NCBI GenBank assembly: GCA_038108555.1
Contig: JAYNIA010000067.1
Location: 1-11,151 of the forward strand
Source: Nitrospinota bacterium
GTDB lineage: Bacteria > Nitrospinota > Nitrospinia > Nitrospinales > VA-1
DNA length: 11,151 nt
Direction: 5' to 3'
Within the stretch, counting starts at the first letter, position 1. Each line of letters begins with the position of its first letter. Position numbers and translations under genes: made by a program. The notes below the pieces were generated by a model. The model searched no databases. It worked only from the letters and a program-made list of their open reading frames with translations, and was not told the DNA's origin. Shown one piece after another: positions 3,073-11,151 of the stretch.

Positions 3073-3768
3073 TCAGTCACTATATTCAAACCTGTATCCA
3101 ACCTCACGTACAGTTTTTATATATTTTCCTGCATCGTTTAATTTGGCTCTTAACCTTTGAATATGGGTATCAATGGTCCTTGAAAAAACTCCATCCCCAT
3201 ATTCCCAAATTTGCTCTAAAAGAAAATCGCGGGTTTTAATTTTTCCCTGGTTTTGAATCAAGTGAGCCAGAAGTTTGAACTCAGTCAAAGTTAACTCAAC
3301 CACCTCACCCTTGACTTGAACCTCATGTTTACCCAGGTCAATGGACAAAGCCCCAATCTCAAAGAGGTTCTTGGTATCTGGAGAGTTTTGGACAGGAAAA
3401 ATTCTTTTTAGTAACGCTTTGACTCTAAGAATTAATTCCCGGGCATTATAAGGTTTAGTGACATAGTCATCTGCGCCAAACTCTAAACCTAAAACACGAT
3501 CAATTTCGTCATCCCTTGCGGTTAACATAATAACGGCAAGATCGCGAGTCTGCTAATCCGAGCGAAGAGCTTTACAAACTTCCATTCCATTCAACTTGGG
3601 CATATTGACATCTAAAATAACCAAATCAGGAAGTTTTTTTCTGATAATTTCCAGAGCAACTTCTCCATCAGGAGCCGTTTCTATTTCAAAACCCTCTTTA
3701 CCCAGTTTGAGCTCTAAAGCCGCTAAAAGTTCCGGGTCATCATCAACTAAAAGAATCCGGTTGTGCAT
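3073..3768 (-). pseudogene. OmpR/PhoB-family DNA-binding response regulator interrupted by one in-frame TAG (3553-3555)
   Basis: ORFs 3553..3768 and 3073..3528 share a frame and join as ...CKALRSD*QTRDLAVIMLTARDDE..., 232 codons in total. Receiver motifs ILLVDDD, DLVILDVNMP (phosphoacceptor Asp), MLTA and GADDYVTKP are intact. Winged-helix motifs LTLTEFKLL, RTIDTHIQRLRAKL and TVREVGYRF are also intact. It could be a sequencing error rather than a true pseudogene. Confidence 0.85.
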
Positions 3769-6023: not shown

Positions 6024-7625
6024 GTGACCATTATGCAAAATTCCGAATCCATTCAAATGATCAAGGAGCAGCTCAAAATTAAGACGGTAGAGTTGCGCAA
6101 AGCCACCGAGGAAAACGGCAAGGTTACCAAAAAAGTCCGAGATCTGATTGAATTCAACAAAGACGAAACCAAAAAGTTAAAAGAAGAAATTAAAAAGGCC
6201 CAGGAAGAAGCAGAAGAACAGAGAAATGAGGCCGCAGCCGCACGCTTGGCAAAACATGCGGGTGTTGAAGCTGGTAAAAAGGAAAAGGAAGAAGAGGAAG
6301 CCATGCTGACCAAAGAGCTTGAAGAGAAGTTAAACAAAAAAATGGCCGGCAAGCTCGAAGAACTAAAAACCCGCACCAAAACCCTGAGAGATAGAATCGA
6401 AGACGAAAAAAAATCCAACAAAAAGTTCCAGAGGGAACGTGATGTTTTGATGAAAGAATTAAAACGTCTTCGAGAAGACACAGGCACGGTCGACAACCTT
6501 AAGAAAAAGGTTGAACTGCTGAAAGTCGAATTAAATAAAGCTAAAAAATCCTCCAAAGCTTCCGGTGTAGTGACAGAAGATATTGTCAAAGAGAAAGATA
6601 CCCTGATCAAAAAATACGAAGACATGCTGTACGGCGGTCTGGATGCAGGTGAAGACGGCATGCTGCCTTCGGAGATCATTCAGGAGCTTAAGGAAGAAGT
6701 AGAAGATCTTGAAAAAGAGCGGCGGACCATGATTGTCGAACTCGAAATGTTGAGGGAAGACAATGCTGAAATGGATATGAAAATCACCCTGCTAGAAGAG
6801 GAAAAAGGCCGTGGGGGTAAGGGGGGGGATGAAGGTGGATTAAGGCCGGTAGAAAGTCGCGCTGCTCAAACTGCAGAATTCTCCGCCGGGCTGGAAAACT
6901 TCCTGATCACCTATTCCGATATGATCACCCTTCTCCTGGTTATCTTTGTACTGATGTATACCGTATCAAAGCTGGACGAAAACAGGTTTGCTGAGGCTTT
7001 GTCTTCCTTTCAAACCAAAAGAATGCGCATAGAAAGCGTTAATGTACGGTTGAGCAAAGATGAACTGAAAATGCTGCAACGCGTACGAGAACTGGTTAAA
7101 GACAATGTTGATGCAGAAAGTCTTGTTCGAAGTGACACAAGAACCATTTTGCATCGATTGCCCACATCCGACCTTTTTGCACCGGGTGAAGCATTCTTTA
7201 ATGAAGGTGCGCAAGACCTGATTATCAGCACTATCCAGGAAGACATGAAAGAAGGGGTCAAACAGCTTCTTGTGGATGGACACACAGACAATGTACCCAT
7301 CAAAAGTGCCAAATTTCCATCTAACTGGGAACTTTCTGCAGCCAGGGCTTCAAAGGTTGCTCGCTTTATAATTGAAAAAATGCGATTCCCACCGGAAAGA
7401 ATGGTGGTCACCGGATATGGGGAATTCCGACCCCTTTTGGAAAATACAAATGATGACAATCGCGCCGCAAACCGTCGCGTTGAAATTAAAATTCTGAAAG
7501 CCCTTGAAGTTGCGGACAAAGAGGCGAAAGAAGCAGGTAAAGAAAAAGGAGGACAAATGGGTGGAAATATGACGGATAAAAAGACATCCGAAGCACCCAC
7601 TTCGCCCCCGGCGGCAAATAAATAA
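6024..7625 (+). CDS. motB: MotB/PomB-family stator subunit with a long N-terminal cytoplasmic coiled coil and a C-terminal OmpA-like peptidoglycan-binding domain
   Basis: TM helix FLITYSDMITLLLVIFVLMY starts at 6900, with the conserved ion-binding Asp at 6918-6920 (residue 299). Plug-like SKLDENRFAEALSSF follows. OmpA-like motifs GHTDNVP, SNWELSAARA, GYGEFRP and RAANRRVEI are present. The ~290 preceding residues are K/E-rich heptad-like sequence. The start is uncertain (GTG 6024, ATG 6033 or ATG 6057). Confidence 0.9.
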   Translation: MTIMQNSESIQMIKEQLKIKTVELRKATEENGKVTKKVRDLIEFNKDETKKLKEEIKKAQEEAEEQRNEAAAARLAKHAGVEAGKKEKEEEEAMLTKELEEKLNKKMAGKLEELKTRTKTLRDRIEDEKKSNKKFQRERDVLMKELKRLREDTGTVDNLKKKVELLKVELNKAKKSSKASGVVTEDIVKEKDTLIKKYEDMLYGGLDAGEDGMLPSEIIQELKEEVEDLEKERRTMIVELEMLREDNAEMDMKITLLEEEKGRGGKGGDEGGLRPVESRAAQTAEFSAGLENFLITYSDMITLLLVIFVLMYTVSKLDENRFAEALSSFQTKRMRIESVNVRLSKDELKMLQRVRELVKDNVDAESLVRSDTRTILHRLPTSDLFAPGEAFFNEGAQDLIISTIQEDMKEGVKQLLVDGHTDNVPIKSAKFPSNWELSAARASKVARFIIEKMRFPPERMVVTGYGEFRPLLENTNDDNRAANRRVEIKILKALEVADKEAKEAGKEKGGQMGGNMTDKKTSEAPTSPPAANK

Positions 7626-7710
7626 CAACATTTATTCTATTTGATTAAGCTCTATTTTTTTATAAAATGTAATTAAATTCATTTACCCATTTTTAAAAGG
7701 CAGGGCAAAA

Positions 7711-9918
7711 ATGGATACCCATGAAGACACAAAAGTAGAAAATATAGAAACCACCGATTCGACCGAAAATGGCAAGGATAACCCCTTAAATCTCTCTGAG
7801 GAGCAGATTAAAAAGGCCCGGAAAAAACTAGCGATAGAAAACAAAAAGAATAGTTTGTCCGACGAAGAAACCCTTTTTTACAACCGGCAGGCCTTTTTAA
7901 GATTTAATAGATTCAAGATAGATCGCACCCTCGTCACTTTATCCGAAATCGACAGAACCATCTTCCTGATTGTGCCTCGATTGCTGCATGTTCATCAGGA
8001 AGGGTTGCCCGGCTATTTTGAAGGAAATCCCCCTTGCGGAATCCATAACTTCCAACTGGATATGGAAGCGCAATACGCGATGGAGAAAATGTTTCCAGAT
8101 GTGATTATCCGTAGAAACCCGGAACTAAAACCAGTCATCCACACAGCCCTTTTAATGGGTAGTGTGGGGTCCATCGCGCAAACCAAAAAGTCCGATTTAG
8201 ACTACACGCTTCTTGTAGACAAGAGGGATTTTACAGAAGAGAGCATGAAGCTTTTCCAGAAAAAGCTGAACCTCATTGAACAATGGACATGGGATAACTA
8301 CAACCTGGAAACCCACTTCTTCATAAACGATTATGAAGAGGTAAAAAACAATATCTTTGGTGAAAGTGATAGTGAAAGTACTGGGTCGGCACTTGCCAAA
8401 CTTCTCAAAGAAGAGATGTACCGAACCATGATTATTGTTACGGGAAAAGTTCCCTTTTGGTTGATCTCCCCTGTGGATGCCGATGATGACAGATATTATG
8501 AGCTGTACCAAAAATTATTAAATGGAAATACGCTTCTCAAAAAAGAAGAATTCATTGATATGGGTAACGTTGATGATATCTCACAAGGGGAATTCTTTGG
8601 GGGTTCCATTTGGGCATTGATTAAATCATTCAAATCCCCGTTCAAAACCCTTATGAAAATGGGTGTCCTCGAGGAATATATGTTTGGAGATACAAAATCC
8701 AACCTCCTGTGCCACCAAATTAAGGATAAATATTTTGGGGATACCCCTTATCTGGATATCGACCCCTACCTTGGTATGTTCGAACGGGTACAGCAGTTCT
8801 TTAAGGATGAAAAAGATGAGGATGCCCTGGATGCTCTGCGAACGGCTTTTTACTTGAAAGTGGGCACCCGTGTAGAACCAGAAGAACTGGAAAAAGGCAG
8901 CAAAAACTGGAAAAAGAATACTCTGGTTAAAATGCTCAACGACTGGGAATGGGATGCGGAAAAAGTTGAACGCCTCAACGATTATGGGAACTGGCAAATG
9001 ATGCATAAAGTTGACCTGGGTAACCGGATCAACAAAATCCTGATGGCATCTTATAAAAATATCTCCGAGAAAAATAAAACCCTGGATCCAAGCGAAAGTT
9101 TAATTACCGAAAAAGACACTCACCTTCTCGGTCGAAAACTATTCAGCTTTTACAGGACAGCACCTAACAAGGTAGATAACCTGGGAGCACTGGTAGATGG
9201 TAAAACTGCTGAGACTGAATTGACATTCCTACAGGAGAAAAAATCCTCGCGGGAAAAAGCAACCTGGTATCTCATTCGAGGAAAAACAAGGGCCTATCTG
9301 GAGCAAATTGATCCGGACAACATCATCAAAAAATCCAGCACCCTCCCATTTTTAATGGCTTTTACGGTTTTCAACCATCTTTATAATGATGAAACCCAGA
9401 TTATGGTAAGGGCCGAGGGCAACTCTATGAAAGATGGTGATGTCGAGAATTTGCTCGGTCAGTTGAGCCAATTTATAGCATCTGTAAACATTGCAGCCCT
9501 ATCCAACGAAGACCTGATGGCCGAAGCAAAGGTCAACCAGCTATTTATGCTAATAGACTTTGGCACCCCTCCCCCACCAGAAATTACGATGGGAAACATC
9601 AACGACTGCAAAAATAACGATGAATTGAACAAATTCATCTCCAGACGAATTGACCGGATAAAAAGCATCACAACAACTTATCTCACATCGTGGGGAGAGC
9701 TTTTTTGTAAAACCTATACAGGGTTAAACTGTATGGCTCGGTGTATTGGTGAGTTGACCCCCCAATTGGCACCTGAAAAGGTTGAAAAACCGGATTTTCT
9801 TAAGGTTTATATTCCGAGTGGCCGAAAAGAAATACTACAAATAGCTTGGTTGAATAACTATATTATCCGCTCCCTGCTGATCAAGTCACAAGCTCAAGCA
9901 GAGAAGGTCGCCAGCTAA
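7711..9918 (+). CDS. cyaA: Class I adenylate cyclase
   Basis: Nucleotidyltransferase-type catalytic motif MGSVGSIAQTKKSDLDY (8155-8205; GS plus DxD). Collinear class I blocks: LLHVHQEGLPGY, ETHFF, ESTGSA..LLKEEMYRT, EFFGGSIWALIKSFKSPFK, DPY, LRTAFYLK, LLGRKLFSFY..APNKV and TSWGELF. Confidence 0.92.
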   Translation: MDTHEDTKVENIETTDSTENGKDNPLNLSEEQIKKARKKLAIENKKNSLSDEETLFYNRQAFLRFNRFKIDRTLVTLSEIDRTIFLIVPRLLHVHQEGLPGYFEGNPPCGIHNFQLDMEAQYAMEKMFPDVIIRRNPELKPVIHTALLMGSVGSIAQTKKSDLDYTLLVDKRDFTEESMKLFQKKLNLIEQWTWDNYNLETHFFINDYEEVKNNIFGESDSESTGSALAKLLKEEMYRTMIIVTGKVPFWLISPVDADDDRYYELYQKLLNGNTLLKKEEFIDMGNVDDISQGEFFGGSIWALIKSFKSPFKTLMKMGVLEEYMFGDTKSNLLCHQIKDKYFGDTPYLDIDPYLGMFERVQQFFKDEKDEDALDALRTAFYLKVGTRVEPEELEKGSKNWKKNTLVKMLNDWEWDAEKVERLNDYGNWQMMHKVDLGNRINKILMASYKNISEKNKTLDPSESLITEKDTHLLGRKLFSFYRTAPNKVDNLGALVDGKTAETELTFLQEKKSSREKATWYLIRGKTRAYLEQIDPDNIIKKSSTLPFLMAFTVFNHLYNDETQIMVRAEGNSMKDGDVENLLGQLSQFIASVNIAALSNEDLMAEAKVNQLFMLIDFGTPPPPEITMGNINDCKNNDELNKFISRRIDRIKSITTTYLTSWGELFCKTYTGLNCMARCIGELTPQLAPEKVEKPDFLKVYIPSGRKEILQIAWLNNYIIRSLLIKSQAQAEKVAS

Positions 9919-9948: not shown

Positions 9949-10773
9949 ATGGCAGCAGCAACACAAGAAGCAGAGGCACCCGCAGGTGCAGAACAGGAAG
10001 AACGTCAGGAAACAGGAATCGACACCGGCACATTGCTGGGTGTACTTTCTGGCGTGTTTCTCATTGTTATCGCAATCATCAGGGGGGGAGATGCGGCCAT
10101 TTTTGTAAACCTTAACAGCGCATTGATAGTTGTTGGCGGTACCGTAGCCACAGGCTTTATTGCATTTCCCTCTAAAAGGATTACGGTAATGATCCCGGTC
10201 ATCCAGAATGCCTTTAAACCTGGAGTATACGAACCGGAAGACTATGTAGACGATATTATGAGACTGGCCTCCCGATACCGTTCCGGGGGAATGAAACAGC
10301 TCGAAAACGAAGAAAGCAAACTGGACAACCGGTTTCTAAAGAGTGGCGTTGCCATGATCGTGGACGGATACAATGCCAAAGAAATCCATGAGCTCATGGA
10401 AAGGGAGTTGAATGCCATGCTGGATAGGCATAACTCAGGGCAAAAAGTTTTAAGGTTCATGTCTGTACAGGCTCCGGTATTTGGAATGGCAGGAACTCTC
10501 ATTGGTCTCATTCAAATGTTGATGCACATTGATCACCCGTCCACCATTGGACCGGCCCTGGCAACAGCATTGATTACGACATTCTATGGGCTTTTATTAG
10601 CAAACTTGATTTTAACTCCATTAGCAGCCAAATTGGGTTCCCGAACAGATATGGAAGGAACCCTGTTTCGAGCGATCAGGGTAGGAATTATGGGCATCCA
10701 TGACCGGGTGAATCCGCAAAAAATTCAACGCACCATGAACGCACTACTTCCACCCTCACAACAGCGAGAATAA
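9949..10773 (+). CDS. motA: MotA/PomA/MotP-family stator subunit
   Basis: N-terminal hydrophobic hairpin with SALIVVGGT. Cytoplasmic YRSGGMKQLE and FLKSGVAMIVDG. TM3 APVFGMAGTLIGLIQML and TM4 GPALATALITTFYGLLLANLILTPLAAKL, with both conserved prolines. Confidence 0.94.
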   Translation: MAAATQEAEAPAGAEQEERQETGIDTGTLLGVLSGVFLIVIAIIRGGDAAIFVNLNSALIVVGGTVATGFIAFPSKRITVMIPVIQNAFKPGVYEPEDYVDDIMRLASRYRSGGMKQLENEESKLDNRFLKSGVAMIVDGYNAKEIHELMERELNAMLDRHNSGQKVLRFMSVQAPVFGMAGTLIGLIQMLMHIDHPSTIGPALATALITTFYGLLLANLILTPLAAKLGSRTDMEGTLFRAIRVGIMGIHDRVNPQKIQRTMNALLPPSQQRE

Positions 10774-10778
10774 TTTAA

Positions 10779-11151
10779 ATGTCAAATGTAGATGAAATTA
10801 TTTCTTTAGTTCTTAAGGAGCCCAAACAAGATGGCGCAGATTTCAGCGGCTTCGACCTTAAAGGGGTGAGCCTGAATGGTGCCAGCTTTGTCTTTGCAAC
10901 ATTGTTGGATGTTGTAATGGAAGATGCGGAACTCCGCGAAATTGATTTCTCACAGGCTTCTTTAGACAAAAGCTCCTTTAAAAATGCAAAAATAAAAGGT
11001 GAGGCATTTTTTGACAATAAATTACTTTTTAATCAAAGCAACTATCATACCGCTAAATTTAGGGGCCATGAAATAGGAATGATCTTTCAGGACCCCATGA
11101 CCTCGCTTAATCCTTATCTAACCATTGAAGAACAGCTTGGCCTTGTATTGA
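10779..11151 (+). CDS. Pentapeptide-repeat protein, 3'-truncated; its last ~55 codons resemble an OppD/DppD-type ABC ATPase
   Basis: Absent from the ORF track because it has no stop in the window. ATG is 5 nt after the motA stop and the frame is open to the end. Translation: MSNVDEIISLVLKEPKQDG-ADFSG-FDLKG-VSLNG-ASFVF-ATLLD-VVMED-AELRE-IDFSQ-ASLDK-SSFKN-AKIKG-EAFFDNKLLFNQSNYHTAKFRGHEIGMIFQDPMTSLNPYLTIEEQLGLVL. Confidence 0.8.
   Translation, partial: MSNVDEIISLVLKEPKQDGADFSGFDLKGVSLNGASFVFATLLDVVMEDAELREIDFSQASLDKSSFKNAKIKGEAFFDNKLLFNQSNYHTAKFRGHEIGMIFQDPMTSLNPYLTIEEQLGLVL

Follow-up and report, generated by a model that had tools for sequence, protein, structure and literature searches.

By what route a flagellar stator passes on load or the touching of a surface to second messengers is an open question. 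Most approaches to it go by way of contacts that are weak and indirect, and the locus described here raises it in a concrete form. In the window, by which we mean the whole stretch of 11,151 nucleotides that was analysed, a gene for a MotB with about 290 residues ahead of its membrane helix stands directly before a gene for a class I adenylate cyclase. Is this tail genuine, does it belong to a flagellar motor, and is the cyclase its partner?

Genes of the long-tailed stator

The long-tailed motB lies at 6033..7625 on the forward strand and encodes 530 residues from a conserved ATG, and its frame is open from a GTG at 6024 (533 aa). Because the Met of ATG 6033 is invariant in 23/23 aligned tails, this is the likelier start, with the channel Asp at residue 296 (vs 299 from the GTG); residue numbers throughout are those of the 533-aa form from GTG 6024. 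A sequence-only reading of this DNA had claimed a MotB with a cytoplasmic tail of about 290 residues ahead of Asp299, and the open reading frame 6024-7625 (+) bears this out. One membrane helix (residues 293-311, Asp299 at 6918-6920) and the plug to residue 331 occupy 6900..7016 according to Pfam (MotB_plug, 291-331) and hydropathy, and an OmpA-like peptidoglycan-binding domain follows at residues 385-484 (7176..7475, Pfam). The K/E-rich region ahead of the Asp was also correctly described as free of hydrophobic segments: K and E make up 34% of residues 1-290, and the hydropathy of 19-residue windows reaches at most 0.35 there vs 2.28 for the sole membrane helix at 293. By analogy with the topology of the MotB family, this N-terminal part would be cytoplasmic. 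Compared with the FIT-clade criteria in PMC12505986, the protein has the membrane Asp, the plug plus linker and the OmpA-like domain of flagellar-stator B subunits, and its variant feature is the N-terminus, which is not short.

Downstream of motB follow genes for a class I adenylate cyclase, a MotA and a pentapeptide-repeat protein, separated by gaps of 85, 30 and 5 nt. The putative cyclase (7711..9918, +, 735 aa) matches both Adenyl_cycl_N and Adenylate_cycl of Pfam above cut-off, without the last third of the C-terminal profile, and scores under the NCBIfam equivalog cut-offs. With these domains and a nucleotidyltransferase S-D-L-D (D-x-D) motif that is invariant in 23/23 cyclases, the predicted product has the features of a class I adenylate cyclase.

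The MotA (9949..10773, +, 274 aa) is PomA/MotP-like and closest to PomA in the alignment, and PomAB/MotPS and Clostridium MotAB were the best solved-structure matches for both subunits. It keeps the equivalents of PomA R88, E96 and D114, reported as indispensable for motility (PMC10374538), together with the Na+-site threonines. Among 39 MotA proteins of the kind found in the window, here called type 1, R88 is kept in 39, E96 in 35 and D114 in 39, and the Na+-site residues T158, T185 and T186 are kept in 39, 37 and 39, respectively. The same source uses these three threonines as a criterion for a Na+-coupled stator (PMC10374538); judged by its residues, the type 1 stator is probably Na+-driven.

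The pentapeptide-repeat gene is represented by its 5' part (10779..11001, +; 283 aa in relatives). Within 10779-11151 its open reading frame passes into oppD-like sequence near 11001, where a contig of another run continues differently, and the sequence past about 11001 is likely a misjoin at the contig end. Promoter-like sites occurred at chance level (10 found vs 9.8 expected). Elsewhere in the window, at 3073-3768 (-), an OmpR-type response regulator of about 234 aa, whole in relatives, is split into frames of 71 and 151 aa.

Architecture and distribution of the tail

An alignment-based heptad test found heptad periodicity (peak 3.45-3.55) in separate segments at residues ~8-70, 105-178, 186-203 and 213-260, split by non-heptad breaks at 75-100, 204-212 and 261-285. 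The long coiled-coil tail proposed earlier is thus real, conserved and coiled-coil in character, but it is not continuous: since these breaks divide it, the predicted coiled coil is segmented, and its segments sum to ~220 helical residues, or ~32 nm at most if straight. The tail starts with the tip and coil segment 1 (residues 4-70, 6033..6233), which carries a KEQL motif common to type 1 and a PilZ-linked paralogue, its E and Q being invariant in 31/31. Then come a variable non-heptad linker that holds insertions in relatives (75-100, 6246..6323), coil segment 2 (105-178, 6336..6557), a short helix with a conserved Gly/Pro kink that is a candidate hairpin or binding knob (186-212, 6579..6659), coil segment 4 (213-260, 6660..6803), and a non-heptad linker with a juxtamembrane motif (261-292, 6804..6899), all on the forward strand. 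A Gly-rich hinge had been noted in this last stretch. The non-heptad linker is indeed conserved at that place, but its Gly-rich composition is confined to close relatives, and 11/23 relatives have a single Gly there. A PDB sequence search with the tail profile returned weak generic coiled coils alone (best E 0.0045), an ESM Atlas search with the tail gave no usable match, and among the other proteins of the source genome (G000) neither the tip nor the kink motif was found outside the tailed MotBs.

Two outcomes that the sequence-only reading had named as damaging to it, an assembly artefact and a tail that is a separate gene in homologues, were not found. The same study yielded, from another sample, a contig that covers 6402-8091 with the tail/membrane junction ungapped, and 114 among the 120 homologues listed cover at least 89% of the long MotB; the fusion is therefore not an assembly artefact. 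Those homologues that are listed with taxon names all belong to Nitrospina, Nitrospinales or Nitrospinota. Split copies of tailed MotBs do exist (type 1 in G024; type 2 in G000, G004 and G034; type 3 in G000), interrupted by stops or frameshifts. Their breakpoints differ, so they reflect scattered lesions or errors in the sequence instead of a split that is conserved, and a separate tail gene was rejected.

Conservation of the extension, which had been put forward as a check, holds at the level of the order: a tail-only profile built from 31 sequences matched 77/102 genomes of Nitrospinales. It matched 0/18 genomes in the rest of the phylum, where MotBs occur in frames of 228-349 aa (43 matches, 9/10 genomes tested). 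The profile missed the diverged tail of G076, which was later detected by family search, so an absent tail is to be read as one that this profile did not find. A search of 1.84 billion cluster representatives with the profile gave 130 matches, and scanning 46 of the longer ones identified 33 with a MotB plug domain, 4 tail-like pieces without a plug and 9 weak matches that are generic coils. As the cluster library carries no taxonomy, the restriction to the order rests on the phylum genome scan. The Asp is found at residues 284-315 in 33 type 1 proteins, and in MotBs of other bacteria (79 fetched, 70 parsed, 9 not parsed) at a median of residue 23 and at or before residue 70, except for one protein with a duplicated OmpA domain. 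A Ca. Troglogloeales genome (L226:3596-5038) carries a tandem motB pair and a MotB with an extra OmpA domain ahead of the membrane helix.

Tailed stators, the cyclase and the flagellum

The source genome G000 has four motAB loci. Type 2 consists of motA, a long motB and a PilZ gene; its tail is homologous to that of type 1, with identical tip and kink motifs, its PilZ has RxxxR in 20/20, and there was no cyclase in the flanks fetched. Type 3, a receiver-coil-MotB fusion, has an intact copy in G013 and a broken one in G000, and type 4, the commonest stator, has a short tail-less MotB after a receiver-HD gene. Types 2 and 3 of G000 are broken by an in-frame stop and frameshifts (C50:15778-18193 and C80:362-2918), and types 1 and 4 are intact. 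Long tails were also found on E. coli-like MotBs in two genomes, with 380-500 residues before the Asp and a receiver domain in one. These H+-type proteins (L166-L168, in G076 and G074) are 600-711 aa long and form long coils, the receiver being N-terminal, and 3 relatives were found. Homology of their tails to the type 1 tail was not detected (hhalign probability 2%). Two unrelated MotB cores carry receiver-coil-MotB fusions in which the phospho-site motifs are intact, and a quick-search tree of MotB cores placed long tails on three separate clades, with the relation between the type 1 and type 2 cores left open.

Co-occurrence of the extension with the cyclase, another check suggested beforehand, was confirmed for type 1: 56/58 matches (counted after dropping three rows of the type 3 paralogue) stand directly before the cyclase, and the remaining two are at contig ends. 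A tail dedicated to the cyclase, as had been supposed, did not survive, since long-tailed MotBs occur regardless of the cyclase on the PilZ-linked type 2 stator. In the other direction, the cyclase is kept without a type 1 match in 8 near-complete genomes. At 7/7 inspected loci with the cyclase and without an intact motB, motA was lost too, leaving the cyclase and the pentapeptide gene. Relaxed selection on the cyclase following stator loss was not seen, conservation being unrelaxed in 6/7 genomes and the seventh (G017) being diverged throughout. Because a homologous tail serves type 2 and the cyclase is kept where the type 1 stator is lost, these comparisons indicate that the tail is not cyclase-specific. 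The cyclase is also older than the tail, and in other orders it is not beside motAB in 14/14 loci.

The pentapeptide-repeat gene stays directly 3' of the cyclase after stator-gene loss (L071, L072, L074, L119, L122-L124), and because it remains there its product may be the closer partner of the cyclase. In G074 the cyclase at this locus (L120:8495-12753) follows two tailed MotBs of 500 and 530 aa, unlike each other and highly diverged, and a MotA, which suggests a heterodimeric axle.

Among 51 near-complete genomes of the order, 7 have no flhA and 1 has a broken flhA, and in these 8 neither the cyclase nor a MotB plug was found above cut-off. The other 43 have flagellar genes, the cyclase, and a tailed MotB or its remnant; they include G032, which has fliG and flagellins and no flhA, G022, with its cyclase at a contig edge, G004, with its tailed MotB only as broken copies, and G076, whose tailed MotB came from the family search. 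Since the 8 genomes without intact flhA lack the cyclase and every MotB, the gene distribution identifies the long-tailed MotB system as flagellar, not Zorya-like, and both its occurrence with flagellar genes and the charges R88, E96 and D114 at the torque interface agree with a stator. These 8 genomes come from only three genera, so they amount to few independent events, and as they are streamlined, a general shedding of genes may account for part of the joint loss of flagellum, cyclase and MotB. A 2015 paper reports that flagella and motility had never been seen in Nitrospina cultures (PMC5029188), which speaks against a flagellar stator.

Matches to cNMP-binding domains numbered 0-4 in 5 flagellum-free genomes, 8-32 in 5 flagellated ones and 24 in G000, which encodes roughly a dozen free-standing cNMP-binding proteins (110-180 aa), several of them clustered in tandem. 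G000 gave no CheW match despite its flagellar genes. That the tails replace chemotaxis was rejected as a general rule: CheW is missing in G000 and in 4/4 genomes of one genus, but is present in 71/120 genomes of the phylum. A stand-alone second fliG, ~65% identical to the operon copy, was also observed (G000:C20:23234-24241; L097; L207); a copy is kept in the flagellum-free G023, and one adjoins a divergent tailed stator in G076.

A role for the tail among known stator systems

We propose, with a probability of about one half, that type 1 is an accessory flagellar stator of Nitrospinales in which the MotB tail serves as a stationary docking rod for regulators. In its MotA and MotB, the residues of the ion channel, the plug and wall binding are kept, as are most of those that contact the rotor. 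Stator structures place the MotB N-termini inside the cytoplasmic ring of MotA, and they have led to the proposal that MotB is tethered to peptidoglycan and MotA rotates around it (10.1101/2020.05.12.089201). The MotB dimer would accordingly continue beneath the MotA ring as a rod of segmented coiled coil, and the ~30-residue non-heptad linker before the membrane helix would fit threading through the MotA cytoplasmic pore. Because MotB is the wall-anchored axle with its N-terminus in the cytoplasmic lumen of MotA, the tail would leave through the ring without rotating, which gives no support to a rotating transmission rod. The rod may be a general docking arm whose partner varies by paralogue, namely the cyclase for type 1, a c-di-GMP-type PilZ for type 2, and a fused receiver for type 3 and the E. 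coli-like stator. Gene order and the analogy to P. aeruginosa MotC, which stimulates the cyclase SadC (10.1101/483339), make the cyclase the likely partner of the type 1 tail. Least surely, the tail might hold or tune the cyclase at the motor, such that stator engagement alters cAMP; this would feed the large set of cNMP-binding proteins, the link being optional for the cyclase. The accessory-stator reading is weakened by the coexisting type 4 stator, which could drive the motor alone.

The tail could instead be a structural tether by which stators are anchored at the motor or pole or directed there, as a second, cytoplasmic anchor or as a cross-link between stators, with the cyclase in the operon for co-expression only. 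We consider this possible. Tip and kink motifs common to paralogues with different neighbours would imply one common partner, the long coils of the E. coli-like stator without detectable homology look as if any added stator needs one, the cyclase is unaffected by stator loss, and the PilZ-fold protein FlgX of Campylobacter is a structural cytoplasmic stator support (PMC11725899). However, the commonest stator is tail-less, regulation is suggested by receiver domains fused twice at the tail end and by c-di-GMP motifs in the PilZ, and in four families the cyclase gene keeps its place between motB and motA.

A stronger form of the docking-rod proposal strikes us as rather doubtful. It holds that a modular input/output port on the stationary stator axle evolved in Nitrospinales, with tails on at least three stator lineages, each leading to a different signal (cAMP synthesis, c-di-GMP or phosphorelay), and that the type 1 tail would physically couple stator engagement or load to the class I adenylate cyclase, forming a genetically hard-wired mechanosensor of the flagellum whose output drives a large cAMP network. 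If true, a stator would drive such a network in globally abundant nitrite oxidisers.

That tailed stators act as a regulated decoy or brake, filling rotor sites or staying plugged until a tail signal releases them, and thus slowing or parking the motor without outward signalling, seems improbable. At the position of PomA E96, 23/23 type 2 MotAs carry Ser or Gly, and type 1 MotA does not keep the equivalents of K89 and R232 in the alignment (R232 aligns to Gln257), which also counts against an accessory stator. MotB N-termini have been proposed as a path that runs from cytoplasm to plug, and receiver fusions imply signal flow into the stator. Yet type 1 retains R88, E96, D114 and the ion-site residues, and a brake leaves unexplained why an output enzyme such as the cyclase sits in the operon.

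Just as hard to sustain is the model of the sequence-only reading, a flagellum-independent, Zorya-like sensor with the MotB tail as a dedicated rod activating the cyclase: it fits a self-contained operon away from the flagellar cluster, the tight linkage of type 1 to the cyclase and the recurrence of tailed MotBs and MotA before the cyclase in G074, but the system was never found without flagellar genes, rotor-contact residues are kept, the tail occurs without the cyclase and the cyclase without the type 1 stator, and MotB is the non-rotating part.

As judged from its sequence, then, the long-tailed MotB is a real, conserved variant of a flagellar, Na+-type stator that departs from the tested stator features only by its long N-terminus. 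A literature search taking in a minority of the subscription papers found no description of such a MotB tail, of a receiver-MotB fusion or of a motB-cya-motA operon, and the main text of the stator survey (PMC12505986) makes no mention of Nitrospina or coiled coils. Across an entire order of bacteria, the stator axle has gained a large, separable domain at its cytoplasmic end, with a cyclase, PilZ or receiver beside or on it. The docking-rod reading offers a small testable system of tail, cyclase and chimeric stator, predicts visible extra density under the stator ring, and is relevant to motility among marine nitrite oxidisers, a group in which flagellar genes have received little study.

Compared with the A5B2 stators PomAB, MotPS and Clostridium MotAB, the type 1 stator keeps the Asp, plug and OmpA domain and the equivalents of R88/E96/D114 and T158/T185/T186, but its B subunit has ~290 cytoplasmic residues vs ~20-40 there, and its gene order is B, cyclase, A. 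With Zorya ZorAB it would share an A5B2-type architecture and a long, helical tail on the cytoplasmic side that would contact soluble partners (PMC11946911). The ZorA tail, however, is part of the rotating pentameric A subunit, with which it turns and recruits effectors (PMC11946911), and measures 70 nm, whereas the tail here is on the anchored dimeric B subunit. Its MotA is 274 aa long without a long tail or a PADLOC match to ZorA, no ZorC/D/E effector genes were found in the locus, where cyclase and pentapeptide protein have no PADLOC match either, and the system co-occurs strictly with flagella; the suggestion of an inverted counterpart of the ZorA tail is hence not supported. Campylobacter FlgX resembles the predicted tail in adding protein mass at the cytoplasmic face of each stator (PMC11725899). 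FlgX is a separate tetrameric PilZ protein without c-di-GMP motifs that binds MotA, whereas the extra mass here would belong to MotB itself, and c-di-GMP motifs are present in the type 2 PilZ. A possible parallel is P. aeruginosa MotCD-SadC with FlgZ, where an additional stator set is coupled to a nucleotide cyclase (10.1101/483339) and to a PilZ protein. There the contact runs through membrane segments, by which the A subunit binds a diguanylate cyclase of the membrane (10.1101/483339), whereas here the co-encoded enzyme is a soluble class I adenylate cyclase, with the tail of the B subunit as the candidate link.
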